This document shows positions 4,726 through 44,600 of a stretch of DNA of 64,000 nt, piece by piece. A program made the position numbers and the translations under genes. The notes beneath the pieces were generated by a model, which had not been told where the DNA came from, searched no databases, and saw only the letters and a program-made list of their open reading frames with translations. The DNA comes from an uncultured Spirochaetota bacterium (GTDB lineage: Bacteria > Spirochaetota > Spirochaetia > SZUA-6 > Fen-1364), in the NCBI GenBank assembly GCA_963734545.1, contig CAVTHO010000010.1, positions 64,001-128,000 on the forward strand. The letters are read 5' to 3'. How positions within the stretch are numbered: the first letter of the stretch is position 1; every line of letters begins with the position of its first letter.

Positions 4726-5149
4726 ACGACGAGATCGCGAGGATACCGTTACCGCTTCCATGGGCAGCGCGGGCTGCGTCCCGGCCAAGGGCTTCCTCCT
4801 GGAGCGGACCAGCACCGCGAGCGCGACGCAGTTGACGAGGGAAGCAGCCGCTGCCAGCGCCGACTGCTTCGGTCCCGTCCGCCCGTAGAGCTCGACGAGT
4901 CGCTACTTGCCCCTGTCGTTCGGCTGCAGGTTGGCAATGGTAAAGCTGCGCCCGCCCTGAGTGTTTCGCCTGTTCCGTGACGAAAAAACGCATGGCCGAG
5001 TGGACCGTCCGGTGCGGGTCGTGCCAATCGCGGCGCCCTCCGGGCGATACCTTCGCATCCGCAGATAGTCCTTCCGCAAATAGGTGTTTTCCCCGATACT
5101 CCGCGCTCCCCCGGCCGTATATCCTGTCCGGGAAAAAGGAGAGACAGTC

Positions 5150-9075: not shown

Positions 9076-9091
9076 TCTCTTCCTCCAGATC

Positions 9092-20692: not shown

Positions 20693-23600
20693 CCCCAGGC
20701 CCGTGATGCTGTCCGCGGTGAGGGTGAGGCTGTTTGGCCTCGCCGTCTCCGCTGTCGTCCACGTTCAGGGTGTCCTCGCCCTCCCCGCCGATGAGGGTCA
20801 GGGGGGCCAGGATGAGGTTCACCGTGCCGCCTGCATCAGGCGCCATGGAACCGACGTTGATCGTGTCGGCCCCCGGCCCCGCGTTCACCGTAGTTGCTGA
20901 GCCGATGGACTGGATGTTCAGTATGTCACCGCCCGAGCCCAGGGCGATGTTCAGGCTCTCCACGCCGCTGTAGCCGATCCCGTCGCTCATCCCCAGGCCC
21001 GTGATGCTGTCCGCGGTGAGGGTGAGGCTGTTGGGCTCGCTGTCTCCGCTGTCGTCCACGTTCAGGGTGTCCTCGCCCTCCCCGCCGATGAGGGTCAGGG
21101 GGGCCAGGATGAGGTTCACCGTGCCGCCTGCATCAGGCGCCATGGAACCGACGTTGATCGTGTCGGCCCCCGGCCCCGCGTTCACCGTAGTTGCTGAGCC
21201 GATGGACTGGATGTTCAGTATGTCACCGCCCGAGCCCAGGGCGATGTTCAAGCTCTCCACGCTGCTGTAGCCGATCCCGCCGCTCATCCCCAGGCCCGTG
21301 ATGCTGTCCGCGGTGAGGGTGAGGCTGTTTGGCCTCGCCGTCTCCGCTGTCGTCCACGTTCAGGGTGTCCTCGCCCTCCCCGCCGATGAGGGTCAGGGGG
21401 GCCAGGATGAGGTTCACCGTGCCGCCTGCATCAGGCGCCATGGAACCGACGTTGATCGTGTCGGCCCCCGGCCCCGCGTTCACTGTGGTTGCTGAGCCGA
21501 TGGACTGGATGTTGACCGTATTCCCGCCCGAGCCCAGGGCGATGTTCAGGCTCTCCACGCCGCTGTAGCCGATCCCGTCGCTCATCCCCAGGCCCGTGAT
21601 GCTGTCCGCGGTAAGGACGAGGCTGTTTGGCTCGCCGTCTCCGCTGTCGTCCACGTTCAGGGTGTCCTCGCCCTCCCCGCCGTTGAACACAACCCCACCG
21701 ATGGGAACGGGGATCCCTCCGACAAAGTCGACAGTCAAAGTGTCCCCGTCGTCGGACCCGTTGAACGTGAGGAAAGGCGCCTCAGCGGCCGTGATGATAT
21801 AGACGACCGTTCCGTTCAGAGACACCTGGATATTCCCTCCGTCGCGGAACAGCCGGAAGGTGTCCTGCTCGCCATCATTCATTCTCGGGCCGGCGTCGAT
21901 GACGGAATCTTCCCACACCGTGACAGCGAAGGACTGTTCGTCACTGGCAGCGGGGTCGGCGTTGTCCGTGACCCGCACGGTGAAGGTGTACACGAAGGGC
22001 CCCTGTGCCTCCGTGGGAATCCAGGTCAGCTCACCGGTGGAGGCGTCGAGGAAAACGAATGCCGGCGCCTGGTCCAGGTGGAAGGTCAGGACGTCCGTCC
22101 CGTCCGGGTCGGTCGCGACGATTGTCAACCGCAGCTCGACGCCTTCCGTGGCAGACTGATCACCGATGAAACCCAGGACCGGGGCATCGTTGACGCCCTG
22201 CACGATCACCACGACCCGGGCTGTCGCCGTCCCGGCCTTGCCGTCGGAAACGGTATAGGTGAAGGCGTCTGAGGCGGATTCGTCGAAAGCCAGATAGTCG
22301 AACACGCCGCGGGGGTCATAGGTATAGGTGCCATCACCGTTATCCGTCACGGTCCCCAGGGTCCCGGTGGTGTCAATGGAAACGATGGAGAGGATGTCGC
22401 CCGGGTCGGGATCGTGGTCGTTGGAAAGGAGGAAAGACGCCTGGATGATCAGCGCCGTGTCCTCGTCCGTCAACAGTTCGTCGTCCACCGCCATCGGCAA
22501 TGACTCCACCAGGACGCTGAGGGTGCCCTCGAACACCGCATCGTCCGCCCCGGACATCGTCACGGTCACGACATAGGTACCGCCCAGCTCCCACGTGTGG
22601 GAGATATCGGCCGTGACCGGGGTGTCCGCGCCCTCAGTGAAGGGCACGGTCCGGGTTTCGGTGGGCGAGCCATCGCCGAAGTCGAAGACCAGCCGGGCGT
22701 CCGCCCCGTTCATGGAATAGGACCCCAGGGGATCGCGGATGTCCACGTGGATGAGCGCGGGCCTTCCCTCGTACGCGCCGCCGGTGAGGGTCGGCTCCAC
22801 CACGAGATAGTGCTCGATGCCGGAGACGACCCCGCCGCTCAAGGCGGTCTCGACCCGCTGACCGATGATGACGCGATCCACGAACAGGTCCCCGCCGGCC
22901 TCGAGCTGAAGCATATTGGAGTACCGGTCGGCGGCCAGGAGGACGCGCGTGCTGACGATGTTCCCCGGGGAATGCACAATGAGCGATCCGTCGCTCACCG
23001 TCGCATTCCTGAGCTCGATGGACCCTGCGGCATTGATCTCGAGATCGCCCGCACCGCGCACGAAGGCCTCGATCCGGCGGACGTTCACGTCCGCGCGGAA
23101 CCCGTTCTGGGCCGTCATCTTGAGCGTATCCGCGCTGATGAGGGCGCCGACAGCCTGTGAAATGGTCCCGGCATCCAGATCGATGCGGCTCCCCTGAAGC
23201 GCCGTTCCGCCGAGGGTATTCAGCCGCAGCTCGTTTGTCGCCGTCAGCGCGATCCCCGCGCCCGAAGACTCGGCCAGGGAGCCCCGGTTCGTGAAAATGA
23301 TGTTTTCAGCACGCAGATCCACCGCGCCGCGGGCAACGAGGGCGGCGTCAACGATGATGTCCCGCTCTGCAACGATGTTCCACGGTCCCTGGTAATCGGC
23401 GCCGAGAAGGACGCTGAGGTTATCCCGGGAGACAAGGGTCCCCACCGGCCAGGCGCCCGTGTCGACCTGGATCGCGAGCCCCGCCGTAAGCTCGGCCTGA
23501 CCGCCGGTGAGAAGAGCCCCCGCTGCCTCCCGGATGCTCCGCGCCGAATCGAGGCGGATGGCCCCGTCGTTGTTTCCGGTCGAGCCCCGGGCCGTCAGGG

Positions 23601-26600
23601 CCCCGAGGACCAGGCCCCCGTCTCCACGGGAGACGATGTCAATGGCGTCGGCCTCGACCAGGGAGGCGACGATGCCGGCATCGGAGACGATGGACAGGGC
23701 CCCGGTGTGCGTTCGGACGTTCTCCAGCACCAGCGTCTTGCCGCTCCCGGCGAGATCCTTGTCCGACACGAAGAGGCTCTTCCCCGCCTCCACGACCAGC
23801 TCTTCCACGTCCGTGTAAAGGACCGCCTTGCCGGAGGAAGACGTGGCGACCGTCAGCCGCTTGCCCTGGACCAGGCTGCCCGGGTCTCCCATGACCGAAC
23901 CCAGCCCGGAGGCGAGACGGACATCGGCGCTGCCGACCACGGCTCCCGACAGGAGCATGACACCGTCCGGAGAGATGATCCGCACGAAGTCTGTCCCCGA
24001 CAGGCTCGCGCCCAGGATCAGGTCCGTGCCGGTTTGAATCAGGATGTCCCTGGCCGTGAAGGCGCTTCCGGCCTTCAGGCCTTCGATCGAGCCCGCCGCC
24101 AGGAAGGAGATCGAGCCCTGCGCATCGAAGGAAACATCCTTCATCGCGATGTCGCCGCCCGTGACGATGGAAACGGGCAGGAGGCGCAGGCCGTTGTGCG
24201 TCACCTCGACGAACAGGTCGGGAACGGTCTCCACCTCCGCGTTCGAATAGGTGGCGGGATCCGCAATGAGGATCTCTGCCCTCGGCACCTCGGTGTAGAC
24301 GGGGGTGAGCTCCGCGAAGCTGACCAGGATATCCTCGGGTTCCAGCTTCGCGACGCCATGGTCAGCGAGGGTCTCGCCCGGGTAGAGGACGATCAACCGT
24401 CCGTTCGGCAGCAGCTGGGTCTCGAGCGTGGAGAGCACGGTATCGAAGTTGACGATCCTTCCCGTGGTCTCATCCAGGAAATAGAGGCTTTCCTCCCCGG
24501 CGCCGGCTTCTGCCGACGTCGTCAGGAAGCGGTAGCGGTAGCTGTCCACGGCAAAGAGAGGGCTCTGGATGGTGACATCACGATCATTTCCAGTGTCCAG
24601 CCAGGTTTCCTTGTGAGTCTCGGTAGTCCACTGCAGGAACCGCCGCACGGTGAAAGCGCCGTCAAAGAGGAAGAGGTCCGCGGGCCGTTCGCCGGATTCA
24701 TTCCAGGCGTAGAGGCGGCTCCCCAGGGACCCGTCCCGATTCTGCCGATAGTCAACGAACACCCACGCGCTGCCGCTGTTCTCCAGTCCCCTGGTCCACG
24801 TGTAGAACACATCGTCGCTCGGGTCGTCCGGCGTGCCCTTCGTGTCACGGTAGAACGTGCGGCCGGTCCCGTCCTCCTGGTAGATGAAGAGCCCGGAGAA
24901 CTCGTCCTGGGCAACGAGAACGGCCTCGTCCTTGGTGGGGGCATCGAGCGTCACCCCGTCCAGCAGCTCGTCCACGGGGAGCTTCCGCAGCCTGTCCTCG
25001 ATGGAAAGACGGCCCGACTTCAGGCTCTCGATGCTGTCCTTGAGCGACTGGATCCGCACATCGCCCAGGCGCAGCTGGTCCCTGAACCCTTCCAAGGCGA
25101 CGGTAAGGGCGAGCCGGTTCTGGGAGAAGGCCAGGTCGTGCGTGAAGACCAGGCGTTCGGCCTCGATCGCCTGCGCGTTGATCTGGGCTGCCCCGAGATC
25201 GGACCGCTCGGTCTGCTTCGTCTGGAGGATCGCGGCCAGGCCCTCTTTCAGCCCCGTCTCCCGCAGGTCCAGCTCACCCAGGCGGCTGTCCAGTCCCGCT
25301 TTGTTCGCCGTCAACGTGATACGTGCGGTGTTCAGATCCCCCAGCTCCTTGGTCAGAACGCTCAGCGCCCCGTTGAGGTTGGAGCGCTCAGCAAGGTCGG
25401 CCTGATAGACCAGGTTAAGATCGGCGCGCTGGTTCTGCAGAGTGGAGATCTCCCCCGTGACCCGGGTTGCCTCGGACGGAAGCGAGGCCACGGCCTGGTT
25501 CAGCAATTCCTCGAGGCTGAGCTGCTGGCTCAGAAGAGCGGTCTGGGAGGACTGAAGCTCGGCGAGCGAAGCCTCCTGCAGGCCCAGGGCGGCGAGGGAG
25601 GCCGAAAGCGAATTCTTCTGTGTCGTGAGAGTCGTCTCCTGCGACTGAAGGGCTGCGATGTCCGTTTCCAGGGACTGCTTCTGCGCCTGCAGCCCGAGGA
25701 TCGTCGCCTTTTCCGTCTCGAGAGCCGTCTCCTGGCTCCGGTAGCCGGAGAGAGCCGAGGAATAGTCGGAGCGAAGGGCGGCCAGGGCCGAGTGGGTACC
25801 GGGCAAGGTCGCGTCCAGCGGCTGGTTGGCGCCCTTCTGCGCGAGAGCGGTCCCCACCTGGGTCAGGTCCGTGCGCATGCCGGAGACGGACGCAAGGATG
25901 TCGCGGAGGTCCTCGAGGTCGGCCCGGGTGAGGCCGTCCAGCATGGCCGGGGTGATATCGGTCAGGGACTTCGTCTGTCCCTTGTACTGGATCTGGCCCA
26001 GGTTGAAGGTGCTGAGAGACAGCTTTCTTCCGTCTGAAAGGGTGAACTGGAGGGTCTCGAGGTCGAAATCGTTGTTGAAGAGGGTCGCTGCGGCGGGCTC
26101 ACCCGGCAGGATCGACCGCGGAATTGCTCCGATCCTCTCGTTCACCTGCCCGAGCAGGGCGTCCACCTGGTTCAGGTTGCCGATCCCGGTCACCAGGGTC
26201 TGGTAGGCGACCTTTTGAAGCTGCGTGTTCACCGCGCCGATCTGACTGGAGGTGGAGCTGATGGCGGACCCGACTGAGCTCAAATCGCCTTCCACCAGGC
26301 TCAGGCTCCGCTGTCCAGACAGGCTGGTCGAAACGGTGCCCAGGGTCTGCTGATCCGAGAGGATGGACGACTGCACCGACGTCAACTGGGACTGCGTGAA
26401 ATCGAGGTCCTGCCGCAGCCCGATGCCGGCCTGGATCGTGCCCAGCTGGGTTTGAAGCGCGGTCAGTCCCGTCCGGGTGATCAGGTCCCCGACATATCCC
26501 CGAAGGGTTTCGCCCAGCACATTCGAATAGCCCGAGAGGTCGCGGAGAGACTGCTCGATCACGGCGAGGTCGGTCACGCCGTTCAGGGACGAGATGATGG

Positions 26601-29600
26601 CCAGGGCCGATTGCCGCGCGGTCACCTGGGAGTCGATGGCGCCCATCTGGCCGACAGTGGCATCGATCCGGCCTGTCACGGCCTGGATGCCGTCCTGGGT
26701 CTGGGCCAGGGAACCCTTGTTGGCGTCGATCTGAACGAGGAGGGCAGACTCCTGCCCGGCCAGCCCTGACAACCGCGTGGTCGTGGAGGCGGTCTCGTTC
26801 TGGAGGCCGTTGAAGAGCTGGCTCAGCTCAGCGTCGCTCATCGTGCTCACGTCGAGCGCCGTCACCCAGCCCGCGTCCAGCGTCGCCGGGAACTCGGTCG
26901 CTCCGCCGGACAGCTTGAAGCCCTGCCGCGCGCTCATTTCCGCCGTCACGTCTGCGAGGACCCCGCTCAAGGCGGCCTTGTAGCCGGTCGTGGCGTCCAT
27001 CGTGTCCCGCACACCCTGGAGCACGGTCGTGAGGTCTGAAACGTTGCCGGAAATGGCCAGGATGCCGGCTTCGTTGGCTCCCAGGAGCGATTGCACCTGA
27101 TCGCGATCCTGAAGCACGCCCGTCCTCTCCGTCACGAGGTCGTCATAGCCCGCCATGTCTTCGAGCACGTCGGGGAGAAGCGCCTGCGCCTGGACGAGGT
27201 CCCTGAACGCCCCGGTCTGGACCTGCACCTGCAGATCCCGAACGAGTGAGGGAGTCTGTATGAGGTTCTGCAGGCGATCCTGCTCCATCAGCCTCAGCAG
27301 GGCGTCCTGTCCGAGGCGTCGGTCCGCCTGCAGCCGCAGGGATTCCTGAAGCTCGAGATCCAGCGCTGCCTGGAGCCGGAGGTTCTCCTCCAGCTCCATG
27401 GTCAGCTGCTCCCGTTCGGTCAAGGGTACAACGACGGTCAGCCCCTCCCAATCGCTGACGTCGGAAATAAGGTTCACATTTCCGCCGGAGACCACGCCGA
27501 ACTCGGTGAGACCGCTCAGGCGACCGCCGAGGGTCACGCTGCTTGCGGCCTCCACTGTCAGCCCTCGAACGGATATGTCCACGGCGCGGCCCAGCGCGCT
27601 GAGGCTCCCGCCGGCTTCGAGCTCGAGCGTCCTTGCAGCCTCCAGGCGCCCCGTGAGGACGAGGTCGTTGTTCGCCTTGAGGACGATGTCTCCTCCCGAC
27701 AGGACCGACGAGCCGGAGACCGCCTCGCGGACGAAGAGGCTGCCGCCCGTTGACTGGAGGGTCAGGGCCGCGCCGCTCAGCAATCCCTCGACCTTGCCGA
27801 CCACCAGCCCGCCGTCAGCGGTGACCGTGAGGGCGCCCCCCCGTGCCGCCGCGAGCTCCAGCCCCGTGCTGGCCTCGCCGATTCCGTCTCGATCAGTGAG
27901 GTTCACGAGAGCCGAGGCTCCGGCGCGGAGATCCTCCACCGTCCTGACCGCGGTGTGCACCCCGTTGATTGAGCCCTTGGCGGCGAGGCGAACAGCGTCC
28001 GCCACGATGTGGACGCCGCCCAGGCTGCCGACCGGAACGATTGCGCCGTCACTGGATATTTCCACCCGGCCCTGGGAGGAGTACCCCTGGGTGAGGGTGA
28101 GGAGGGAGTTGGTCTCCCCCAGCGCCGCCGCGGCCGCCGCACCCTCGTCGCCGGGGAACACGGACGAGTAGGCAACCCCGAGGACATCAAGAACCCTGCC
28201 GTAGATGAGCGCGGCCACCTGCCTCGTCATGATCGTGCCGTCGTCGGCAAACGCGTGCGCGACGACCCACGCCAGGTCCTCGGCCTGGGTCAAAGTCAGC
28301 TCCACGAATGCGTCGGACACCACGATCACCGGCAGCCCGCCTGAAAGCGTTCCCCTGACGAGCCGGTTCGTCCGGGTCAGGAAATCCTCAGGGATACCTT
28401 CCGTGGAAATCTGCCGAAGCACGCCGTTCAGCGCATCGAGCCGGACCTGGGCTGCTTCCGCCTCGCTCGACGCATAGGTTCCGCCGCTCACCCAGCCCAC
28501 CATGACGCTCCCGCCGCTCCCCGGGGTCGTCTCCAGGACGATCATGTTCGGTCCGGGGACGCCGGGGTTCCAGTCGTTTCTCAGGACCACCCAGGTGGCG
28601 GTCAGGTTTCCGTTCTCGGTCACGCGGATGTCGCCGTTGGTGATCTCGATTTTCTCGAGCACCAGGTCGGGGCCCGCATCATGCACGGTCAGGTTGCCGT
28701 CTCCGCTGACGTCCACCGTCACGACGTTGGCGTTCGTCTGCAGGCTCGTGGCGCCGAAGGCGACCACGTCCAGGCGGTCCGCCGTGATCAGGCTTTCCGC
28801 GTCAAGGGGCGACATCGTTCCTTCCACCCGCACCTCGACATCCGCGGCGCCGGCCGCGTCGATCACGTCATAGACCAGGGATGCTCCGTCTGCCGTCAGC
28901 GCCCGCACCGCGATGGAGATATCGTTGTCATCGGAGCCTCCCGGGGACCGGACGCTGGTTGCCGTCACTCCGCTGCCCAGGGCACGGATCGTGATGGTGC
29001 CGGCGGCCGTTTCCACTTCCGTCAGGAGGAGTCCCGCCGTCTCCGTATCGCCCTCGGCGTCGACGTCGCGCAGGAGGATGTCGCCTGCGACGGTCACCCG
29101 CGCCCGAACCTCTGCCACGGCCAGATTGTCGAGGAGGACACCGGTCCCTGATGTGGCCTCGAGGTATGCCGCCGTGATGGTTCCGCCAAGGGCGGGAGGC
29201 GTGTCGCCCTCCTCGACGGCGTCCACCCATTCGCCGGTGAACTGGAAGACTGATCCCAGGGGCGCGTCCACCCTCACGCGGTCAGCCGTGAGAACGGCGT
29301 CGATGAGGGAAACGTCTCCGCCCTCGGTCCCGGCCTGCAGGTGGATCTCGGCATTCGCCCCCGTGGCAGCCAGGAAAGCGCCGATCGAGGTCCGGTCCGC
29401 CGTGCCGTCCAGCTCGACGTCGGAATCCGCGTGGGCGAACACGCTGCCGACCCCGGTCTCATCGGTTCCTGCAAGGACTTCGATACCAGTGACGGCGTTG
29501 ACGGCGTTTGTCATGCGGAGGTCCGTGCCTGCCGACAGGAGGACGCTGCCGGCGGCGAGGATCGCCCCGTCCACCCGGAGGCTTCCGCCCGCCGTGACCG

Positions 29601-32600
29601 CCACGTTGCCCGCCCCTGCGATCGCGCCCGGGACCGCAGTGATCAAGGAGGCTGTTTCGCCGATCAGAACGCTGCCGGTCGCAGAGATATCGATGGAAGC
29701 CGTTGCCTTCAGGTGGACGATGTCATAGATCTTCGGCTCCGCCGGCATTGCCCCGCCGACGGTCACGTCGCCGCCGACAGAGGTAATGGCGATGGCGCCG
29801 TTCTCTCCCTCCGCGCTCAGGTTGGCCCGCACCTCCACGTTCGCCCCGGAATGAATCGTGATGGTCCCCCGGGCCGTCAGGGTATCCAGATCGAAGATCG
29901 TCAGGTCCATGGGACCGTCGGCAGGAACAGCTTCACTGTCCCACACGGGCCGCGCCTGGACCACGGGCTCGAGCTTCCGGTTCGTGACCTGCTCGAACTT
30001 GATGACAGGGACCATGCTCGCGATGGTCTCGTAGCGGGGCCGCTTGTCCACGATGTCATGGGCGTCGGTGAAGACAAGGTAGGTGATGTCCGACCGGATG
30101 TCCTTGACTTCCTTCCATTGAGTCTTCAGCTTGTAGATGTAGTCGGTCTGCGTTTCGCCGACCGTGTAGGGGGCGGACCAGTAGGGATCTCTCTCCAGAA
30201 CGGCGATGAGACGGGAACCCGGATCCGCGTCGTTCCAGGTGCCGTTTGTCCACATTTGCAGGAAATCCTCGTCCCCGCCGGAATTGTTCGGCTCTCCCGA
30301 GGAGAAATTGCCGTATCCCCACGCACTGCCGTCCGAGAGCCTGCCGCTCCCCTCGCCGTTCACCCAATCCAGGGACCAGTTGGTGTGGCTCGTGCTGTTG
30401 ATGTTGTACCCGCCGAGCCACACGGTGCTCGAGATCAGGCTTTGGACGTAGTTGTTTTCCCCGGAGTCGTTGATGACGACCATGTGCCAGCCGTCTCCGA
30501 AAGCCGCGGCCAGGTCGTAGGCCTCGTACCAGGTGTAAGAACCGGCTGTCACGTAGTAGTCGCGGCCGTTGTATATCCTCTGCTCTCCAACGGTGCCCTC
30601 GGACCGGGTCCGAGCGGCGATTTCTTCCAGCGTCGCGCCGATCTGGGCGACCGCGAGGATGTTGTTGCCCACGTCTTCCTGGCCGTACACCCGGCGGCTG
30701 TTGACATCCAGTCCATAGTCCCAGTTGCCGCCGTCGAACCCCGACAGGTTCACGCCGTTATGGCCGGCATTCTGGGCGACGAGATTATCCAGCAGGTTCG
30801 TGTCGAGGTTCCACGCGTCCTTGGGGTCCCAGACCACCTTGACCGAGTTGTCCATGTCGAAGGCGGGCTGCAGGACGAATCCCGCCTGGGTCACACCGTA
30901 CAGGTAGTCGAAGTCGGACACCGCCATCAGGCCGGTCCCGGAGAGGGCAATGCTCTGCGCCACGGCGAGGTTCACCAGGCCGGTGTAGAGGGCGGGGACG
31001 TAGGGGAGCCCTTCCGAGGGCGCGCTGCGGCCGTCCTTGATGCTGTACTGCTCGTAGGCGGTGTACGCGTCCGTCCAGTTGGAGTCGGGCAGCGCGAGAT
31101 AGGTGACCACCCAGCGAGCCGCGCTGTCGTCGTAATCATCCAGCTTCCAGACGGCTCCGTCCACCGCTGCCGGCTGCGTCCCCGAGACGAAGGTCGACCA
31201 CTCCTGGGTGTACTTGAGCTGGGCCACTTCCCGCTTGTATCCCACCGTCTCGTCGTACGTATCGACGTTGCCCACGTACTGGAGCTTCTTGGCGTCGGGT
31301 TCGGTCCTGTCGTTGCCCAGCGTGGTCACCGTGTAGGTCTCCCACCATTCCCTGGGCGCGCGCAGGAATATCGAGGTTCCGTCGTCCAGCGTGTACGACA
31401 CCACGGCCCGGGCAGCGCCGGAGAAGTTCAGCTCCCAGACGTTGGCAGTGGGGATGCCCTCGATGTTGCGGTTGATCTTCCCCAGGCCTTCCATGGGCGA
31501 GTAGATCTTCTCCGAGTGGGTGTCGAGGAGGACCTGGTCCTCCCGGGCGGAGAAACTGGCCTTGTAGAGGGCCTTCGCCGGATTGCTGTAGTCCGCGTTG
31601 TAGTCCCGGCCGGCGATGTAGAACAGGTCGGCCAGCGCCTGGACCTGCTGGGGAGTCGGATTTTCCGGCAGGAGATGCGCGGGAGGCATGAACCATTGCT
31701 CGGCCGTCATGCCCGCAGTCAAAGGATCGTAGGGCCGGAACTCGGGGAACCAGAAGTCGAAGTATTTCTTGTACACGTACTGGGTGGTCACGGCCGTCCC
31801 GACGCCGACAGTGCCCACACCGGCGGGAACCGTCGCCTTGAACTTGCCGTTCACGAAGACCCCCGGCACGAACTCCGTGCCTCCGGTTTCCATCTGGTAG
31901 AAGAGCCCCTGCGCCTGGACGGAGGAGAGGGCCTGGGCGACCGTAAGGCCGGCGGACCCGGACGCGGCTGCCGTGAAGGTGCCGATGCCGTCGGCCAGCG
32001 AAAGAATGCCGCTCACCATTTCCGTCGCTCCGAGGACCCTGGCCTGCTCCAGGGTGAGCCCGTCGAACCTGGAATAGGTGGATGCGGCCGTGGCCATGGG
32101 CACAGCGGCGGGCAATGTCACGGTCATCCTGAACCCGGAGAGGAACCGCAGGTCGAACAGCTTCTTGTAGTGCAGGTGATCCATGATGGCATTCAGGCGT
32201 TCGGTATCTGTCAGGTCGCCCCAGCCCTTGTACTGCGTCTCGCCGTCGTCCGTGCCGGAAATCACCCTGTCCACGAGACCGGTATGGAGCTCCGTGTAGG
32301 TGTGGGCGGTATAGAGCTGCACGTCCTGCACCGCTGCGGCTCCCTCCACGGTCAACGCCGCGCTCATCGCCCCTCCGCCCATCAGCGACGCGGGCACGTA
32401 CAACGGCGGGTTCATGACTCCTCCCGTTGTGCCCGCCTGAGCGTCAAGAACCACGGCGTCGAGCGCGGCCCCCTCCGCCAGCGGACGGCCGAGGTCCAGG
32501 ATGAGGCCGGAGTAGTTGATGACCTCCGCTATCGCGTAGAGCAGGGCTTCATCCTCCACCAGGAGCCTGACGCCCGAAACCGGGTCCCGCATGTAGACAC

Positions 32601-35600
32601 TGTCCGTGTCGGGATGGTACTTGCCCGGCCAGTCCAGGTCTGCCACGTGGAAGTCAATGCCCTCGATGAAGTACTCCCGGAACCGGTTCGATTCCGCGAC
32701 GCCCGCCCAGTCTGACCAATACCCATCCTGGACGAGCCGGGTTTCTATGGAGGCGAACTCGCTGCCGACTTTCACGTCGTCAAAGCCCGTCTGCTCCGTC
32801 GTGAGGGTGGGGACCCAGTGGACGACCGGGCGCAGGATGTACCCGGCCTCCACCATCCGGTATCCCGTCACCACGTCCTTGTAGACGAGCTCGTAGGTCA
32901 CGTAGGGAGGAGCGAAGGAGAGATCTGCATTCATCGTGTCGTCATATGCCAGGAGGGACACGACGCCCGGGGCCTGCAGGGTGATGTTTCCGCTGAGCGT
33001 TCCTGGCCCGTAGCCGGCGGCGATCTTTCCTTCCTGGGAAACCACGATGCTCCCGTCAGCCTCGCTCTCCCCGGCCTGAACGGTCACATCACCCGCCGAA
33101 AGAATTTCACCCTGCACCAGTACATCGCTTCCGGCATGGAGGGTGACGGCGCCCCCCGCTTCCCCGACGGAAATGGTGCCGTACACCCCGATGTTCCGGC
33201 CGGTGAGCGTCACGTCCGCCCCTGCGGCAATCAGCGCGCGGAAGTAGTAGATGAGGCTCCGGGCGATGTAGATGCTGCCTTCCCCTTCTTCCGCACCGGA
33301 AGCTGTCAGGGAGACCGAAGAGCCGGATCCGCGGGCGATGACCACGCTCTCATCCAGCGCCCACACGTTGGTTCCGGTGACGGCAACCGCATGATGGGCG
33401 TTGGCCAGGGCGTCGCCCCTGAAATAGATCTCGGCGTCGCTCTCCAGGATGACGTCCTGCACGTCCACGGCAGGCAGGGACGTGGTCTCGTCCAGGTGCA
33501 CGCGTCCCACCATTCCGAGAAGCTCGAGATCCCCCGCGCCATCGATCGTGATTGTTCCGCCCTGTCCCGTGTTGAGGAGGCCGCCGCTCTTCCGCTCCGG
33601 CAGGCCTGCCACGACAAAGCCGGTTGTGGCCTTTGGCGCGAGGCCCGGCTGCGCGATGCCGTCCTTGAGGCTCCCGTCTTCATTGATGAGGGAGCCATAC
33701 TGGTTGATCCGATTGCCCCCCTGATCGAGGCGCAGACCGTCTTCCCCGATGACAAAGCCGGCTTCATCGAGGAGCTGGCCCGCCGCGTCCACCCGGTAGA
33801 AGCGGCCGCTGGCCTTCTTCTCCATTCTGTGTCCGAGCTTGTCCACGAATTGGAGGGCGTGTGCGCTGTCGTGGGTGATATAGACGGGCGTGGCCCCCAG
33901 GACCGGGTTTCCGCCGGTGCCCTCGACCAGGACAGGCAATCCATCCGCATCGACCACCACCCGGCCCTCCGCGTCGGTGGCGATGAGGAAGCCGGAATCG
34001 TTGATGAGCTGACCGTTGGCGTCAACCGTGAAGTCGCCCCAGGACCCGGCCGTGGTCTGTACCCGCAGGGTCTCCGTCACGTTGAGAAGCTTTGTCAGCA
34101 GCACGCTCACGGGCGATACCGAGCCGGCGTCAGCCCCGGTCAGGTGGAGATTGTGTCCCGCCTCGACGAACCCGCTGATTTCCAGAAGACCATGGCCGGA
34201 GCCGATCGTCACGTCCGAACCAGGATCCAGGGACTGGATGATCCCCTTGATCACGGCGCCGTCTCCGACGGCCAGGGTGACTCCGCTGGGCGAGCCGCCG
34301 GCCAGGACTTCCGTCCTGATAAAGCTCTTCTCGTTCAGGGAGAAGAATGGCGCCGTGCCGCCGGTCACCGTGATGGACACCAGGCCTGTTGCCTGGGCTG
34401 ACCCTCCCCACGCCAGCGCTTCTCCCGCCGCGGCGGCGTCTCCGTTGACCACGTCCAGGTCCGTGGAGGTCACGACCCCGCCAAAAGTAACCAGGTCGGA
34501 AGCGACGATGGTTATTCCGGCGCTGCCGGCGGTCCAGCTCAGGGCAGGCTCTTCTCCCAGATACGTCCTGCCCCGCTCGGCCCCCGCGATAAGCCCGCCC
34601 AGAACATCAACGTAGTCGGCTTCAAGACGAATCACGCCGCCGCCCAGGCGGGTCCTCACTTCGCCGGCCCGGGCCACGAGGATCCCGCCGTTCCCGGCAA
34701 TCAAGGCCACCCCGCTGGACGCGACGATCGAGGCTCCCAGCGGGTATGTCGCCCCGGGAGGAAGTGCCGGATGGCTTTCATCCGCCGTGCCCGTGGCGCC
34801 GGCGACCGTGATGGCGTCCGACAGGATCCGCACGTTCTCCCCGGCAGCGGAGAGGAAGGTCCGGTTCTCCGTCAGGAACTCGAAGGTCTCCACGCCGCCG
34901 GCCTCGATGTTCCCCTGGATAAGGACCCCGGTGGGTGCGGTGATGAGGAGAGAGCCCAGGGCGTCCAGGTCTCCGGTGGCGGAAATGGAAACGGAATCCC
35001 GGGCAGCAAGGACAACTTCGAAGTTGTCGGCGGTTGGATCACCGGCCGGTTCAGGGGCTGTGACGCCGGCGTTCTTCAGCACACCGGAAATGTCCAGGTT
35101 CTCCGCTGTCAGCACGATCCGGCCGTTGGTCTCGATCCAGCCGGATTCTTCGGTGACCGCGATGTCCGCGTGCAGGGAGGTGATCCGCACGTCGCCGTTC
35201 ATCCGGGGCTCGTCGTTCTGCAGGGAGCCGATGGGGCCGTCGACGATGACGTGATTGTATCCAACAATCTCAATGGCTTGAGAGCTCGACGCCGGTCCCG
35301 TCGTCTTCAGATACCCCGTCGGGTTGAGGACGACGCTGTTCCCGCTCGCGCCGGAACCCGCCGCAAGCCCGGCTTCGATGTGGACATTCCGATCGGCCTT
35401 GATCCGGCCGCTGATGGTCAGGGTGTCATTGGCGGTCAGGATGACGTCGCCCTCAGCACCACCGGCCGTGAGATCTCCCTTCAGCTCCCCGGTGTCCCCG
35501 AAATCGAGGACGATGGGCCCGTCCACCGTCTGGAGGAGGCTCGACCAATCCAGGTCCAGGAACGTCGCCGGCCCCTTCACCATGGAGATCTGGTGGTTCG

Positions 35601-38600
35601 ACAGGACAGACCCGGCGATGTACAGGGTGCCCACCGGGTTCTCCGGCGTTCCGAACTGGACCTCGGATCCGGCCGCGGCGGCGATGATGTTGAACGGCCG
35701 CGATGGAACGGCCACGGCTCCGCCTGCCACGGCGTCCAGGCCCAGGAGCTCGGCATGATGGCTCTGGAAGCCTGCCCCGCCGGACGGGTTGGCCGCTGAA
35801 GGCAGCACCTTGAACAGGTACTGGCTGGTCAGCAGGATCTTCCCGTTCTTCAGCTTCACCCTGATCAGGGGATCGGCGGCCCCGCCCGTGGTGACCGGGT
35901 CGTCGGCGAAATACCCCGGCTCCAGGGCGGTCCCGTCGAGAGCGTAGTAGTCGGCGCTGTTGAGCGCGTTCTGGATGTCCATGAGAAGGTCCATGATCCG
36001 GCCGTTGGAGTAGTTGTCAGTCGTCGCGGCCGCGGGAATTGTCACCTGGCCGACGATCTTCCTTTCCCCGAGGCTGATGAAGATGACGAGCGTCACGTCC
36101 TCGGGCAGCACGCCGGTGTTGGACGACCTGTTGGCGAGGATCGTGTCGTTGGGCATGCTCGTGAGGCCCAGGAGGTCTTCATGGACCGAGCTGTACTCGA
36201 TCTTGAACACTTCGCCGGACACGAAGGCTATTGAGCCGCCCATTTCGACCGCGCGGATTTCGGCCGGCATCACGTCGTTTACATCCGCCACCAGGTCGGC
36301 CAGGGTCGAATTGTCCGCGGCTGCCGCCGCCGGCACGGTGACCGTGTACTCGGAGGGGATCGTGCCCAGCACCCGCAGATCGAGGACTACGTCCCCGGCC
36401 AGCCCGCGGCTGGGAGGCAGGACGGCTTCCGCGGCCACGACCTGCAGCGGAACCGAGAGAACCGCGGAGACATCCGTCCCCGGTGCAGCGGCCATGCCCA
36501 GCTGTCCTGCCTCGAGGGAGTCGTCACCGATGACGGAGAAGGCCCGATTGCCCGTGAGCAGCAGCCGGTCGCCGCTGTTCCCCACCACGATGAGCTGGCC
36601 GGCGTAGGAGCCGGTGGGCACTCCGTCGTGGAACACAGGGGCCGCCACGAAAGCGGTCTCGATGTCCAGCAGGAGGTCCGCCCGTCCGGCGTTCGTGGCA
36701 GTGTCGGCCTGCCGGACGATGACAGTGGCCGTGAACCATCCGCCCGCCCCGTCATCCACCGCCAGGGCCAGCGTCACGTCTGCCGTGAGGATACCGGACG
36801 CGGGGAGGTCGGTCGTGCCGGTTATCTCGAAGCCCGGCGTCTCCAATCCTGAAGTCTTGATGCCTGCCGTGAAGCCGAGCTGGTCCAGGTGATCGACGAG
36901 CTCCACGGTCAGATGGAACACGCGCGAGCCGACGAGCACCACGACGCCGCGCCGATCCTGGGCCGTGATGTAGTCCCCGAAGTATTCACCGGAGAGGCCG
37001 GGCACCGGCGTGGCTGCCAGGGCATCGTTCAAGTCGCGCACCAGGTCGGCGATCCCGGCGTTTGCCGTGGTGCCTGACTGGGTCCCGTCCGTGGCCCCCT
37101 GCAGAACGATTACATCGCCGCCGAACGTTCCACCCATGCCGTCGTCGAAAGTGAGCTCCATTGTCAGGTCCGCCGAAAGCCTGCCGTTCACCATGCTGTT
37201 CAACGGGATGATCCTCTGGGTCGGCGGGGGCCGGACGGCCAGTTCTTCCGTCACACCGGCAAGCTCGGTCAGCCCGAGGAGATGACCATTCACCGAATCC
37301 CCGACCAGTGCGAAGGCCCGGGCGCTCGATATCACCAGCGTCCCGGCCTCGTTCAGGGCGGAAATCTCCTTGAACCCGCCGCGGATAAAGGCGAGGTTGA
37401 GATCAGCCACGAGGTCGTCCAGCCCGGCGTTGTCCCGCGTCTCGTCCCGGGAGAGAACCACCCGGCCCGTCGCCACTCCCTGGCGCTCGCCGGTCACGGG
37501 ATCCGCGGCCGGCAGGTCGGGATCCAGGGTCTTCGGGTCATCGTTGGGATCCACATTGGACATGACGATTGAAAGCTCCACGTTGTCCGGCAGGACGCCG
37601 GTCGTGGACAGCGGATCGTGGGGGACAACGTCGAAGATGGACGGATCCCTCACGGACTGCGAAACGCCGCCGGCAGCCGCGAGGGAAAGGCCGAGGAGGT
37701 CCGCGTTCTCCGACAGAGGATTGATCGCGATATCGAGGGTTGCGCTGGCAAGCACGAGGGTTCCGCTCACGTACCTTGCCGTGATGTCCAGGCCGGCAGC
37801 CTGGAGGGCGCGGGTGATGTCGGCTGCCAGGTCATCGAGCCCGGTATTGGCCGTCCCGTTCGTTCCGTCCGTGTCCCGGCGGCTGATTGCCACCAACGAG
37901 GAAATCATCACGTCAGCCGAATCCACGGTGGTGATGCTGAGCGTGACGTCCTGGGCCAGGATGCCTGTCGTGGGAACGGGCCGGGCGCCGACGAGCTCGT
38001 GGACGGACGGCGCCCTCGCCGAATCGAGCGCCGCGCCGCCCGAGACAGTGGTGAACCCCAGGAGGCCGGCCGAAACGGACGTGTTCTCGATTGTGAAGTC
38101 GTACAGGCTCGAGAACACTATCCTGTTTCCTTCCAGAGTCGCCCGGATATCACCGAAGCCGGCCAGGAGGAGATCTGCGTTGACGTCGAGGAGGAGGTCG
38201 GCAGCCCCGGTACGGGCCCCGTCCGAGGCTATGATGAAGGACCCTGAAGACGACTCGCCCAGCCGGTTGATGGCAAGCGCGAGTGTCACGTCGCCTCCAA
38301 GGATCCCGGTAGCCAGGACCCCCGAGTCCAGCTCGGTGTCGGCGACCACCCGGGCGTCATGGAAGAGCTCCACGGCCTCCAGGTCCTCGCCGGGGGTGAA
38401 GCCCATGAGGGCCACGTTCCGGGAAGCGCGCTTGATCTTGAAGGCGGAATCGCCGGTCAGGACGATCTTCCCGTCACGTATTCCTGCCGACACGTAGTGG
38501 CTGAAATGCAGTCCCTCCGTCTCGTAGCGGGGAATGAGAGTCGAGGCCAGGGCGTCGTTCACGTCCGAAGCCAGCTCGGGCAGCGTGGTATTGTCCGTGG

Positions 38601-41600
38601 TTGCCGCGGCCGGAACGACCACGGCGCCCAGGAGCACGTCCTCCAGGTCCGTGGCCTCGATGCGGATCACCAGCGTCACGTCGCGGACGAGCTGTCCCGT
38701 CACGGGCGCCGCGCTTTCAGCTTCCAGGATGGCCTCGTAGCGGGTCTCCGCGGTTTCCCACTCGTAGCGCATGCCCAGGAGATTCACGTTCTGGGAGGTC
38801 TTCTCGATCTCGAACTGGTACCCGAGACTCGTGAACACGAGCTTCCCGGCACGCAGCACGGCGTTGATCGGGGCAAAAGGACCGGCGTCCAGGGCGGCGT
38901 TGACATCGTCCACGAGGTCGTCCAGTCCCGCATTGTCCAGGGTCGAGGCCGCGGTGATGAGCACGGACGGAGCATCGACGACTGTTCCGCCGGCATCTTC
39001 CATGCGAATGTCCAGGGTCACGTCGGCCGCGAGCCGGCCGCCGGTGGGCAGCGGCTCGTCAGCTTCGATCTCCGCCGGCAAATAGTAGATGACCGAGCTC
39101 AGGACCGGCGCCAATCCCAGGAGGTCCAGGTTCCGCGAGCTCGGGAGGATTGCGAAGTCGTACGGAGCGTCAATGAGGATGCTGCGTCCCAGCCAGCTGA
39201 CATCCAGGTCGCCGAAGGATGCGCTGGCGTCCAGGAGACCGTTGATGTGCACGATGATCCCCACATCGGGCGCGACGGGGTATTCCGTCCGCACATCCAT
39301 GCCGGGGATGAGCACCGTTGCCGTGGTTTCGACCCCGTCCACGCGCTTCCACAGATCGAGCGTGACCGGCACCGGCAGGACGCCGCCCAGCAGGAAATCG
39401 CTCTCGCCGACGATTCGGGCCAGGGGACCCTTCACCCAGGTGTCTGGCTCGATTTCATAGAAGTGAGTCGGTGTCAGCACCTTGATGGGATCCGGCCCGC
39501 TCAGGACCACCCGGCCGTTCTCCCCCCAGGTCTCCACGAGGGCGGACCCGTATATCAGGACGCTCACGTTCGTGAAGTTGAAGGGATCCGCGGGGTCCCC
39601 TTCCGCAGGGTCATCACCGCCGGTGAGCTCGATCAATCCGCCCGCCCGGACCACGGTGCCGATCCTGACCTGGTGCCCCGCCGCAATGCGGATGGCCGTG
39701 TGGGAAGCGGCGGTCCCGAAATCGAGCAGCTCGGACCCGATGTAGCCCCCGGTCTCTGAGTCGCGGATATTCCTGACCTCGCCGCCTGCAATCAGGTGAC
39801 CCTCGATTTCGGCGTCGTTCACCGCGACGATCGATATCAGGCTGTAGTCCCGGCGGGTCGTGATCTCGCTTGCGCCCTGGATCCGGACCCCGATTTCTCC
39901 TGCAATGAAGGGATGCGCGGCCGTATCCACGTTTCGAAGCTCGATATTGTCCTTGGCAGTGATGTAGCCGCCCGTGACCAGGATGTCGCCGAAGAGGGAG
40001 TAGAGCGCCTGGATCTCGTAGCGGGAGGAGCCGGGCAGGGTTTCATTGGCCTCCAGCTCCCCGCCTGCCAGCCCAAGAAGATCCTGGTGAACGGAGTCAG
40101 CGGTGATGGCGAAAGGATTCTCGGCCACGAACACCAGCCGGCTGTTGCGGATCTGGATGTCGATGACCCCGCCCGCCATTCCGGACAGGGCAGCAGAAAG
40201 CTGGTCACGCAGCTGCGCGAGTGAGGCGTTGTTTTTCGTCTGCGCCTTGGTGAGAGTGATGGATCCGAGCAGGGTCCCCTCCCCATCCTGGAAGAACAAT
40301 GTCACGTCTTCAGCAAGCTGGACCTGGCTCCTCATGTTCCGGGTCCACCCGCCGATGAACACCTGCCCCGGAGACTCGATCCTGACGTCGCCGCCCACGC
40401 TCGTGTCGAAGTCCACCGACTCCTTGATGAGGTTTCCTTCCGCGTCCAGGAGAAGGGACTTGCTGGCGCCGGAGTAGATGTGCCCCATCATCTCGACGCC
40501 GCTCTCGCCGTAGAGGGAGACCAGGCCGTGGGACCCGTCGGAGGTCCGACCCGCCGAGGTGATCCCGCCCGCCGTATTGATGATGACGCTGACCCGGCCG
40601 CCCTCCGAGCCCAGGCTCACGTCATCCGGCCCGGCAGCTCCGCCCGTCACGGTCACCGAATCGCTGGCCAGGAGCCCGGAATCCAGGTACACCTGCTCGC
40701 CGGCAGCGACCACGATGTCCGAATCCGTCCCGGACCAGATGACGCCGCAGGGGCCGATGGAGCCGCCCGCCACGACCGTGCCGAAGATATCAACGTCTTT
40801 GGCGCCCCAGATATGCACGTCGCTCCCGTTCTGGAATGAGGTGATGACGGCTGTGGCTTCCACCAGGACGCTGCTGACCAGGTCAAGGTCGAGGTCCCGG
40901 GTTTCTCCCCGGCCGTACACGTTGATGCCGTCCTCCACCTCGACAAATGAGGTGGCGAACTTCACCCGCTGGCCGGAATCGATCAGCAGGCCGGCGCCCT
41001 TCCCGCGAACGAAGATGCTTCCCTCGATGATGATGTCGTCGGGGCCCTCCAGCCGGAGCAGGCTGTTGTCGGCCAGGGACATCAACTGGCCGGTCAGGTG
41101 GATGCTGGCGCTCACCGGGTCGCGGTCGTTCCAGTCCTGGTCCACCGCGCCCCGCAGGTCCATGACGTCGCTGGAGGTGATGGCGCCGTAGATGCGCAGC
41201 TCGTGCGGTGTCCGGATGACCACGTCGGCACCGGGACCGGTCAGGGCCTTGACCCCTCCCTGCCACTCGACGCCGGCCAGGATCTCCCCATTGATGTAGA
41301 CCGCCTCGGGCGCCTCGATGTGGATCAGGCTCTCGGCGTCCCGGGAGGAAATGACCCCGGCGATCTGGACGAGCTCGAAGAAGGTGCCGGGAAGGATCGT
41401 GATCCGGGCGTTCTCGCCGCGCACGATGGTGTGGCCTTCCAGCACCACGGAGTTTTTCGTGATGATCTCGATGACGCCGCCGTCGAGCAAGGTCTCGATC
41501 GTGCCGGCGACGCCCTGGATGACGTTGTTGAGCCTGCGCGTGTCGTCCTCCACGCTGCTCATCATGGGAGAGACGTACGATTCACCGTCGCCCTGGATGT

Positions 41601-44600
41601 TGACGTAAATGCTGCCGTTGGTCCTCAGCCATCCGTCGACGATCATGCGGTTGCGGACGCCGTCCAGAACCAGCAGGTCGCCCGTGATCCCCGAATCTGT
41701 GCCGCCCAGGGGGTTGTTGATGTTCTTGGACTTGATGTGGAGCCGGTCGGTGTTGACCTCGAGCGTGACGGGGGGCTGGCCGGGCGTGGCGCAGGCCTGC
41801 ACCTCGCCTTCGATATAGATCCGCCGTGCGTTGAGGATCACGTCGTCCCGGAAGGAGGAATCGCGCACCCGCGGCCGGCCGTCGTACTTGACGACCGCTG
41901 CGTTCATGGCGTCACCGAAGGTCATCCTCTCCGTGGGGTTCAGGGCCAGCGGGTCCGCGTAGTCCTCGCCGATGGTGATGAGGGTGAACCCTTCCTTGAT
42001 GGCGGACAGGTCCCGGGTGGAGAGGTGGACCGTGTTGGCGAAGAGGCTGCCGTCGTTGTTGTATGTGGCCTCCAGTCCCTCGCCGGTGAAATTGCCGCCC
42101 ACGTGCGCGGGGAAGTTCGTGAAGCCGGGATAGGTGTCGTGGATATAGGTCCAGTCGTTCCCCAGCTCGTGCTCGGCAGCAGTCCCGAGGATGAAGTCGG
42201 TAGCCTGCATGGCCTTGAGGAACAGCCGGCCCGTCCCGATCACGCCGCCGCGCGCCCGAGCCGGGTCAGGGTCACGCTCATACGGGGCGCTCAGGAAGTC
42301 GAAATCGTCCGCGGTCAGGGTGATGTCCATCCCCGGCGCCCGGGTGATGATGCTCCCCGTGTGCAGCGTCAGCCGCGCCCCCACGCCGTTCAATGTGACC
42401 GTGATGATCCCGTGGGCGCTGGAAAGCCCCGCAGGGTTGAGCGCCGGGACATCCGCCACGGGCACGCCATAGACAACGAGACTGTCGGTTTCCTCGATGA
42501 CGATCTCGCTGCCGGCAACGGCTCCCTCATCGCGAGTGAACACGGTGATGCCGGCAACCGTCGTGATGATTGTGTTCACGCTGCCGGTCGAATAGTTGAG
42601 GATGTCGTCCGCCGCAATGATGAGGTGCGTGCCCGCGCCCAGGAACCTCATGTTGTTCCGCATATACAGGGAGCCTTCGGCCACCAGCTTGATGGTCCCC
42701 CCGCCCAGGTTGTCCGAGTTGTCTCCCGAACCGGAGGTGATGTCGGCCCGCAGATCGATGTCCGAGGGCAGGGCATTGTTGGCTGTGTGGATATCGAGCC
42801 GGCCGTTGTTGATCGCGTTGATCGGGACCGTGACCACCAGGCCGCTCACCCTGATGATCCAGTCAAGGTCGTGCGCGTCGATGCGGTGCGCGATGGTGCC
42901 CGCGGCGTCCGCGACGCCGTTCACGACCGTGGCGCTCGTGCCGACGCTGTCAGCCGTGATGTCGAAGTCACCCGTGGCGTGGACCGTTCCGTTCAGGATC
43001 ACGTCCTCTACAGCGGTGAACACGAAGCTGTCTCCGTCCAGCCGGGGCTCGACGGTCAGGTTCCGCGCGGTCACCACGAGATCCGTGGCCCCCATCACGA
43101 CCCCGGCAGGGCCGTTGGTGGAAACGATGGTCAGGTCGCGCAGGTGGGTGGTGGTCACGCCTGCCGCATCGATTTCGGACTCCTCCACCGGCAGCGTGAC
43201 CTGCTCCAGGCCGTCGGTGAACTGGATGATCTCGCGGCCGCTCACGATCTCGTGGTCGTTGAACTCGAGAATGTCCGGAAGCGTGTCATTCGGCTGGATC
43301 CCGGGGATGTTCCGCAGTATCAGCTCGTCGAAGGCCGTGTCGTTGTCCAGGAGCCGGATCGTGCCGTCTGCCTTGGTGGAGGTCTGACGGCCGAGCTCGA
43401 AGGTGATGGTCGAGGCTCCGCCTGCGTCCTCGATCTCGATGACCCGCTCCGGCGGCTCCTTGATGGTGACGATGTCGTTTCCCGTTCCCAGGACAATCCG
43501 GGTCACGTTCGAGCGCCCGGCCTTGAGCTCGACCCCGGCGGTTGCGACGGTGATTCCGGTCTTGTTGATCTGGACCGTCAAGCCCGTGGTCACTGCCGAG
43601 AAGTCGAGGACGGTAACGCCCTGGGCGTCGCGGAAGGTGTCCTCCCCGAAATCCGTGGCAAAGACATACGTATCGGCCCCGTCACCGCCGCTCAAGGAGT
43701 CGACGCCGGAGCCTCCGTCCAGGATGTCGTCCCCGCCCAGGCTGGTGAGCCGGTCGTCACCCGCGCCGCCGCTCATGGTGTTGTTCCCGGCTCCTCCGGT
43801 CAACCTGTCGTTGCCGGGACCGCCGTCCAGTGTCATGTCTCCCGTGGTGCCGGCGCCCAGCCCGGCCAGGGTGTCATCCCCGGGGCCGCCGATCAGGATT
43901 CCGCCTGCGTTCCCCGCGGTGAGCTTGTCGCTGCCTTCCCCGCCGTCGAACTCGACCGACACTCCCACCAGGCCAGACGCGTTGAACACGTCGTCACCCG
44001 CGCCGCCGTCCGCGATGACCTTGGTGAAGCTGCCGGTGCCGCTCTCCGGGAAACGGTGGCTCCATTCGCCGTACTCCACGGTGATGGCACTGGCATCCCC
44101 GGTCACTGTGAACTTCTCGCCGCCGTCCGTGGTATCCAGGTACTCGCGATCACCTGCCCGCTTGCCGGTATGGAGAATCAGGGTCCCGGCCTCCTCATGC
44201 GCCAGCACCGGCTGGACCTTGGGCGCCTTGTATTCCCATTCCGCCAGGGTGATGTCGAAGATCTCCCAGTCCACCACGCGCTTCATGATCTTGCCGACGA
44301 ACGGGATGGACACTCCCACGTCCACGAACACGTAGGCTTCGAAGTACGCGCGGCCGTGCAGGTTGAAGAGGTTCAGGAGCCCTCCGGGGGCGTCGTAGCC
44401 GGTGTAGTTCCACATGGTGATGAGCTCGGACACGCGGATCTTGCCGTCGTCGTTGATGTCCTGGAGGTCCAGGCCCGCCTCGAAGCCGATGTCCCCGCCC
44501 AGGCCCGCCTCCACGACGAGCGCCCAGATGGAGGCCTCCACGCCGATCTCGATGCCGAAGGTGAGCTCGTCCTTTTCCTTGCCCTTGTTGTCGCCGCTCA

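Follow-up and report, generated by a model that had tools for sequence, protein, structure and literature searches.

In giant RTX adhesins, ligand-binding domains are described to bud from 'split' Ig-like domains and to project off the fibre axis (PMC12077191, PMC10865825), and in AhLap a vWFA domain buds from the RTX beta-roll solenoid (PMC12077191). Such split-domain units, as in Vibrio cholerae FrhA, Aeromonas hydrophila AhLap and Marinomonas primoryensis MpIBP, are supported by a small sandwich of Ig-like type that contributes one strand ahead of the insert and the others behind it. The chain ends of the inserted binding domain lie together, the shaft consists of tandem Ig-like extender domains, and the host is a giant protein with Ca2+ repeats in which sugar-binding heads are common. 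Here, an insert of comparable arrangement is analysed in a 64,000-nucleotide stretch of an uncultured Spirochaetota bacterium (GenBank assembly GCA_963734545.1, contig CAVTHO010000010.1, positions 64,001 to 128,000), which is referred to as the window throughout. The whole feature is hosted by a single open reading frame (ORF) of 12,450 aa on the minus strand (21223..58575). The insert probably represents a widespread, unnamed display module, set into the beta-rich shaft of what would be a giant fibre protein of the cell surface, in which two arms form a two-stranded ribbon that holds a conserved base and a C-type lectin.

Like the RTX units, the module places an inserted binding domain, predicted to stand off the fibre axis, in a giant host with Ca2+ repeats, and heads of sugar-binding type are common in both. 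It also has a support that is discontinuous in sequence with the chain ends of the insert side by side, as its two arms flank the insert and covary. Its support is predicted to differ from the Ig-like sandwich, with two matched arms of ~62 residues in one antiparallel register and a conserved base of ~300 residues without a Pfam or PDB sequence match, and its shaft carries Gly-rich, beta-rich text instead of the Ig-like extenders of RTX adhesins. No sequence relation between the two kinds of unit was found. This comparison suggests that the module is a variant of the split-domain display known from RTX adhesins with a different support design. Within the terms searched, the full-text literature yielded no description of the module or of a ribbon stalk, and passages of a preprint on giant beta-helix proteins do not describe the module either.

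Layout of the insert

In window coordinates, the codon of ORF residue i begins at 58575-3(i-1), and all parts of the feature are read from the minus strand. The Gly-rich shaft text, which includes GDVTVQAG (aa 8495) and GNITLQA (aa 8529), restarts with GTITIHSGANVEV at aa 9570, which confirms the statement of the first-pass annotation that this text is interrupted and then resumed. Each string quoted in that annotation is present once, and all of them lie in the 12,450-aa ORF. The opening stretch (VTYELVYKDVV...FDDVKVG) corresponds to aa 8559-8604 (window 32901-32764) and the closing stretch (TDYIYKLKTQ...VIKFEQVT) to aa 9477-9531 (window 30147-29983); the arm strings had been read correctly, and the positions attached to them (32915-32715 and 30160-29940) were off by 13-49 nt. 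Counted from the first arm through the end of the second arm, the insert (aa 8559-9531) comprises 973 aa without a single Cys. The paired part of the arms extends past the quoted strings, to aa 8559-8620 and 9490-9551.

The shaft flank before the module (32902..33228, aa 8450-8558) is Gly-rich and beta-rich, and in an AlphaFold2 model of aa 8450-9640 built from a 39-row alignment (the window model), residues 1-90 appear as short strands in a block with a predicted local distance difference test score (pLDDT) of 78-93. The N ribbon arm (32716..32901, aa 8559-8620) is delimited by a hidden Markov model (HMM) of this arm, by covariation and by model strands 110-126 and 130-171. The rest of the N-arm and a conserved base of unmatched fold (30580..32715, aa 8621-9332), recognised with a family profile termed A3 and hmmalign, lead to the C-type lectin domain (30187..30579, aa 9333-9463), which has its EPN motif at 30286..30294 (aa 9428-9430) and its WND motif at 30229..30237 (aa 9447-9449). 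The chain leaves the lectin through the first part of the C-arm (30109..30186, aa 9464-9489), which is matched by the C-arm HMM and contains model strand 1021-1035 with a pLDDT of ~75-89. It continues into the C ribbon arm (29923..30108, aa 9490-9551; model strands 1039-1054, 1057-1082 and 1085-1100) and ends in the shaft flank after the module (29656..29922, aa 9552-9640), where model residues 1121-1190 again form short strands with a pLDDT of mostly 84-92. The flanking shaft, for which no fold match was obtained, is presumably a beta-solenoid.

The insert contains more than a lectin, with ~710 residues of base and lineage-specific insertions between the N-arm and the lectin domain. The A3 profile, which was built from 55 compact modules and does not include the window's own sequence, matches ORF residues 8506-8649, 8778-8813 and 9033-9609 and thereby the entire family core. 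Four lineage-specific insertions, at aa 8655-8767, 8838-8879, ~8913-9032 (to 9104 by hmmalign) and 9214-9289, add ~113, 42, 120-190 and 76 residues (hmmalign), respectively, and mostly overlap segments of the window model with pLDDT < 50. A ribbon carrying the lectin alone is rejected on account of this base and its insertions. No Pfam family matches the conserved base, and Pfam names nothing within the module besides the heads. A search of the insert without the lectin against PDB sequences gave nothing under E 0.24, and ESM Atlas look-ups with the whole insert, lectin clusters excluded, and with the base of the compact module gave no usable match. Fold searches with both models described below returned lists filled by C-type lectins and thus barely probed the base and the ribbon. 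The fold of the base is therefore described as unmatched, and is not claimed as new.

A family of modules with shared arms and different heads

When the insert was searched against 1.84 billion protein representatives, 967 proteins matched at E<=1e-3, mostly through the lectin only. One group of matches is fragmentary and comes from proteins closely homologous to the insert over its full length, with 45-70% identity. A distant group (P0052, P0062, P0076, P0079, P0094, P0106, P0110 and P0115) shares ~100 residues at the start and ~70-90 at the end of the insert but has a different middle, and alignments of both ends across these distant proteins show clear conservation. HMMs of the two arms, built from the window and seven distant proteins and thus including the window's own sequence, each match the giant ORF once, at aa 8560-8670 for the N-arm (E 1.3e-45) and at aa 9457-9548 for the C-arm (E 3.3e-35).

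As an independent set, the N-arm alignment was scanned against one genome per species, which gave 89 relatives, 80 of which were kept. The carriers include Planctomycetota, Burkholderiales, Marinomonas, Oceanospirillum, roseobacters, Verrucomicrobia, Sulfurovum, Kuenenia, Magnetococcales, Anaerolineae and KSB1. A C-arm lies downstream of the N-arm in 70 of the 80 loci, in the same frame in 69. Nine of the ten loci without a C-arm have < 1000 nt of DNA after the N-arm; the exception, L079, has ~3,970 nt and still no C-arm. The window copy shows the order N-arm, base, head and C-arm in one frame within a long beta-rich protein. Only five matches came from a search for protein homologues of the N-arm, and a metagenome scan added 12 further loci, two of which were used in the identity comparison and none in the covariation analysis. 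With the insert as query, none of 20 genomes of the same genus was matched and one of 40 relatives overall was, in the lectin part only, many genomes in both sets being incomplete.

A total of 77 modules (the window, 68 loci and eight proteins) were compared. With a lectin HMM, for which 120 stretches were taken out of 159 that qualified, all from outside the module family, a C-type lectin head was found in 24 of the 77, and all 24 are Cys-free. EPN is kept in 18 of these 24 lectin-bearing modules and W[NSD]D in 18. Other modules carry an L-type lectin (L064), Laminin_G_3 together with CBM_35 (L080), DUF5648 (P0052) or, in one case, a crystallin domain. The head is exchangeable among relatives. 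The compact-module profile also matches collectin lectin domains weakly (E 1e-4).

Two further arrangements were observed within the family. In P0058 (470 aa), the C-arm at residues 273-322 runs straight into an N-arm at 319-379 with no shaft between them, and modules may therefore also stand in tandem. In the close relatives L008, L009, L010, P0005 and P0019, the N-arm match is split after column 63 by ~120-125 extra residues, and this point at the distal end of the ribbon is a second insertion slot.

Probable antiparallel pairing of the two arms

To examine covariation, the 77 modules were aligned to the arm HMMs, rows with >90% identity were removed to leave 68, and mutual information with average-product correction was calculated for pairs of columns. 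Among the 20, 30 and 100 highest-ranking N-C pairs, 8, 10 and 17, respectively, lie on the antidiagonal where the N and C column numbers sum to 98-102, against expected counts of 0.9, 1.4 and 4.6. The covarying pairs reach from N column 6 to 72, a span of ~65 residues, without a second register. When the C-arm columns were permuted, none of 2000 permutations reached the observed counts in any 5-wide antidiagonal, and the best parallel diagonal contains only 3-4 of the top 20-50 pairs. The paired parts are nearly free of insertions and deletions in both arms across the 77 modules. Within each arm, the top pairs are almost all local, with hardly any long-range pairs of hairpin type, so nothing indicates that an arm folds back on itself. 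A coevolution check of strand pairing, as proposed in the first-pass annotation, thus yields one antidiagonal. A complex prediction of N-arm against C-arm, run with a 65-row alignment for each and without controls, gave a score of 0.04 against a mark of 0.32 and counts neither way. Overall, the arms are likely to pair antiparallel.

Besides the window model, an AlphaFold2 model was made of a compact module of 708 aa from Thioclava sp. SK-1 (L027), with an alignment of 55 modules. The mean pLDDT is 64.5 for the window model and 82.4 for the compact model. A column sum of 100 translates into a residue sum of 1212 in the window model and 712 in the compact model. The compact model has one N-arm strand of 52 residues (80-131) and further strands at 579-583, 586-593, 597-630 and 633-641. 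In both models, strand ends and breaks match the covariation register within ~2 residues; for example, the N break at 127-129 in the window model lies opposite the C break at 1083-1084. As read from their secondary-structure strings, the models therefore contain the ribbon in the covariation register. The distal half of the ribbon, beside the base, has a pLDDT of >= 79 in the compact model.

The idea of the first-pass annotation that the two strands pair into a stalk for the lectin thus stands as far as the antiparallel pairing is concerned, on the grounds of arm co-occurrence, covariation and strand boundaries, and fails with respect to the load, which is not the lectin alone. Its suggestion of a structure prediction for the insert with its flanks gave a divided answer, with strand ends that fit an antiparallel register and a poorly predicted proximal half of the ribbon.

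The Cys-free C-type lectin head

The 131-aa domain (aa 9333-9463), scanned on its own, reaches 25.3 bits with Pfam PF00059 Lectin_C and so exceeds the gathering score of 22.6; a scan of a 1591-aa piece misses Lectin_C at E<=0.01. Among PDB sequences, the lectin matches surfactant protein D (SP-D) with E 1.4e-8, and EPN, the N that follows, the E and D of an ED pair and WND all align to the same residues of SP-D. A Foldseek search with the window model, in which the lectin domain has a pLDDT of mostly 70-91, returned mannose-binding protein (MBP) C (1kza) with a template modelling (TM) score of 0.81 normalised to the target (E 5.2e-6) as well as CD23 and MGL with TM scores of 0.70-0.75. The head of the compact model also has a C-type lectin fold, with tetranectin at Z 15.6 (root mean square deviation of 2.1 over 111 residues) and MBP-A at a TM score of 0.74.

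The domain therefore shares its fold and the EPN...E...WND motif of the Ca2+/sugar site with collectin-type carbohydrate-recognition domains (SP-D, MBP-A and MBP-C; PF00059). Unlike these, it has no Cys and no disulfides, and it sits between a base and a ribbon arm in a bacterial fibre, whereas the collectin domains stand on a collagen or coiled-coil neck. A classical C-type lectin domain has four conserved Cys that form two disulfides, both of which are missing here. Among the database matches, 116 of 273 C-type lectin stretches are Cys-free and 198 contain EPN. Freedom from Cys as a special feature of this lectin is rejected, as it applies to those 116 related stretches and to all 24 lectin-bearing modules. 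The first-pass annotation was right in calling this a Cys-free EPN/WND lectin, by sequence, fold and Cys count, and the lack of Cys is not unusual here. By its sequence, the lectin is a member of a Cys-free subgroup of C-type lectins.

The site would be suited to Ca2+-dependent binding of sugars of the mannose/glucose/GlcNAc/fucose type. With the EPN...E...WND residues kept, the module would most likely let the fibre grip such sugars on another surface. It is unlikely that the lectin fold instead serves another ligand, such as a protein, a mineral or ice, or binds Ca2+ for structural purposes only. Many C-type lectin-like domains bind non-sugar ligands, the two classical disulfides are missing and the long loop of the lectin is poorly modelled, all of which would suit such a role. 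Against it, the domain has EPN, N, both residues of the ED pair and WND in alignment with SP-D, most lectin-bearing modules keep the two motifs at the frequencies given above, and other modules bear other lectin-type heads.

A second C-type lectin stretch is present in the same genome (G000:C3:247229-247528, L002) inside an open frame of 770 aa, and it matches the window lectin with E 7.9e-6 and 32% identity.

Conservation of the arms

Identity was compared with two close homologues on metagenome contigs, L085 and L086. The N ribbon is 84% and 77% identical to L085 and L086, respectively, and the C ribbon 65% and 71%, in each case without an insertion or deletion. The corresponding values are 53% and 48% for the lectin, and 12-52% and 29-58% for the insertions.

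How the ribbon may be arranged on the shaft

In the explanation that we favour, the giant surface-fibre protein, probably exported by a type 1 system, would send its chain out of the shaft as a strand of ~62 residues (aa 8559-8620). The chain would then form the conserved base, enlarged here by the four lineage-specific insertions, and the Cys-free lectin (aa 9333-9463), and would return as a second strand (aa 9490-9551), antiparallel and residue for residue with the first, after which the shaft resumes. The paired arms would be a two-stranded ribbon of fixed length, up to ~20 nm when fully extended, that keeps the base and the lectin off the shaft. Because the shaft text continues for ~2,900 residues past the insert, the module is placed laterally on the fibre and not at its tip. 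The view of the first-pass annotation that the adhesin is branched is supported to this extent, and branched adhesins are a design already described among RTX adhesins. The steps from a paired ribbon to a free-standing one that projects sideways, and to exposure at the cell surface, are less secure. That the arms form a free-standing outrigger of fixed length, with ~60 residue pairs reaching up to ~20 nm, a conserved device in at least ten bacterial phyla or orders that would carry exchangeable heads far from a beta-solenoid shaft, is a real possibility that we rate somewhat below even.

Several observations weigh against the proposed explanation. Between close homologues, no part of the module is as well conserved as the ribbon arms, which a passive exposed spacer would not explain, and this suggests that the ribbon packs on something, such as the base, the shaft or a further chain. 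In both models, pLDDT is < 50 in the half of the ribbon nearest the shaft (residues 101-130 and 1081-1100 of the window model, 62-92 and 620-649 of the compact model), and the predicted TM scores of the models are low (0.39 and 0.54, respectively). Contacts, the straightness of the ribbon and its angle to the shaft were read from secondary-structure strings and the register alone. AlphaFold2 and covariation are not independent of each other, because both use largely the same family sequences. The 5-wide antidiagonal was chosen after the data had been seen, but the permutation test covers every such antidiagonal. A comparison of facing columns by mean hydropathy does not single out the covariation register and is uninformative (r = -0.07 for a sum of 100, with r between -0.25 and 0.30 over registers 88-112). 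Finally, the long loop of the lectin (model residues 944-971) has pLDDT < 50, and no type 1 secretion genes were found within the 64-kb window.

The conservation of the arms would also fit an arrangement in which they pair as proposed but the ribbon is laid against the shaft or wound around the base; the module would then be a seated knob and the ribbon a clamp or folding seam. The absence of insertions and deletions between close homologues would fit a packed surface, the well-predicted half of the ribbon is the one beside the base, and the proximal half is poorly modelled. An unbroken strand state of 42-52 residues is, by contrast, hard to fit round a globular base, and we consider this arrangement rather unlikely, although it is the more serious of the structural alternatives. 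The low pLDDT of the proximal ribbon could also be taken to mean that the models show long strands only as an artefact of shallow alignment and that the end stretches form a compact split domain, as the split Ig-like domains in RTX adhesins do. Several registers would be expected of a sandwich made of short strands, whereas the covarying pairs of the arms, from N column 6 to 72, keep to a single antiparallel register, and there are almost no long-range intra-arm pairs of hairpin type; as read from the secondary-structure strings, the models have strands of 42-52 residues in place of short sandwich strands. A compact split domain is therefore very improbable. If the free-standing outrigger is true, the high conservation of its arms would point to an additional function, such as that of a tether that bears or senses force, or of a place where neighbouring fibres zip together.

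The host gene and its neighbourhood

The whole 12,450-aa protein, with Pfam domains at both ends, contains five Cys in total. When its first 500 aa were scanned, PG_binding_1 was matched at the N-terminus (window 58395-58530, ORF aa 16-61, minus strand) with 24.6 bits against a Pfam cut-off of 23, and this region may be a periplasmic or cell-wall anchor of the fibre. Near the C-terminus of the ORF, Pfam recognises Cadherin_5, Big_9, He_PIG and PKD as well as an RTX repeat match; Ig-like or cadherin-like domains were detected by Pfam only there, and none in the shaft. The ~2,900 aa that follow the module end in RTX repeats. A stretch at window 24828-27825 (~ORF aa 10,250-11,250) is rich in Leu (13-19% per 250 aa) and in Gln and Glu (12-15% together), with similar text in the close homologues P0002 and P0003, and, judged from composition alone, may be a coiled coil inside the fibre.

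The stop of the giant ORF at 21223 comes after a frame change within near-identical tandem repeats of ~97 aa. The reading continues on the minus strand beyond this stop (window 17588-21300), in a second frame (ORF 20628-21287) and then in a third (ORF 17588-20692), the last of which encodes 1034 aa with six RTX stretches (E 8.5e-38). The full gene probably encodes ~13,660 aa with two frameshifts, which are either assembly errors or real.

Directly upstream of the giant gene lies an ORF of 986 aa (window 58592-61552, minus strand) without a Pfam match. Other neighbouring genes encode a GH10 xylanase with CBM_4_9 (window 5084-6775, plus strand) and a GH26 mannanase-type enzyme (window 7180-9075, minus strand). 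The GH10 and GH26 neighbours hint that the bacterium lives by degrading polysaccharides, and a fibre with a mannose-type lectin would suit such a lifestyle.

Significance

Giant fibre proteins of >10,000 residues occur commonly among environmental bacteria but have been left almost entirely uncharacterised, and understanding them begins with learning where they bind and to what. The module marks a probable binding site of such fibres, and its two arm profiles provide a sequence signature with which such sites can be located where Pfam finds nothing. Should the long ribbon prove real, it would rank with the longest beta-ribbons of two strands that have been proposed in any protein, and the Thioclava version of 708 residues, with a mean pLDDT of 82, offers a compact target for structure determination. 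The exchangeable heads, which include C-type lectin, L-type lectin, LamG/CBM, DUF5648 and crystallin domains, would let the ligand specificity of these fibres be read from sequence across many phyla.

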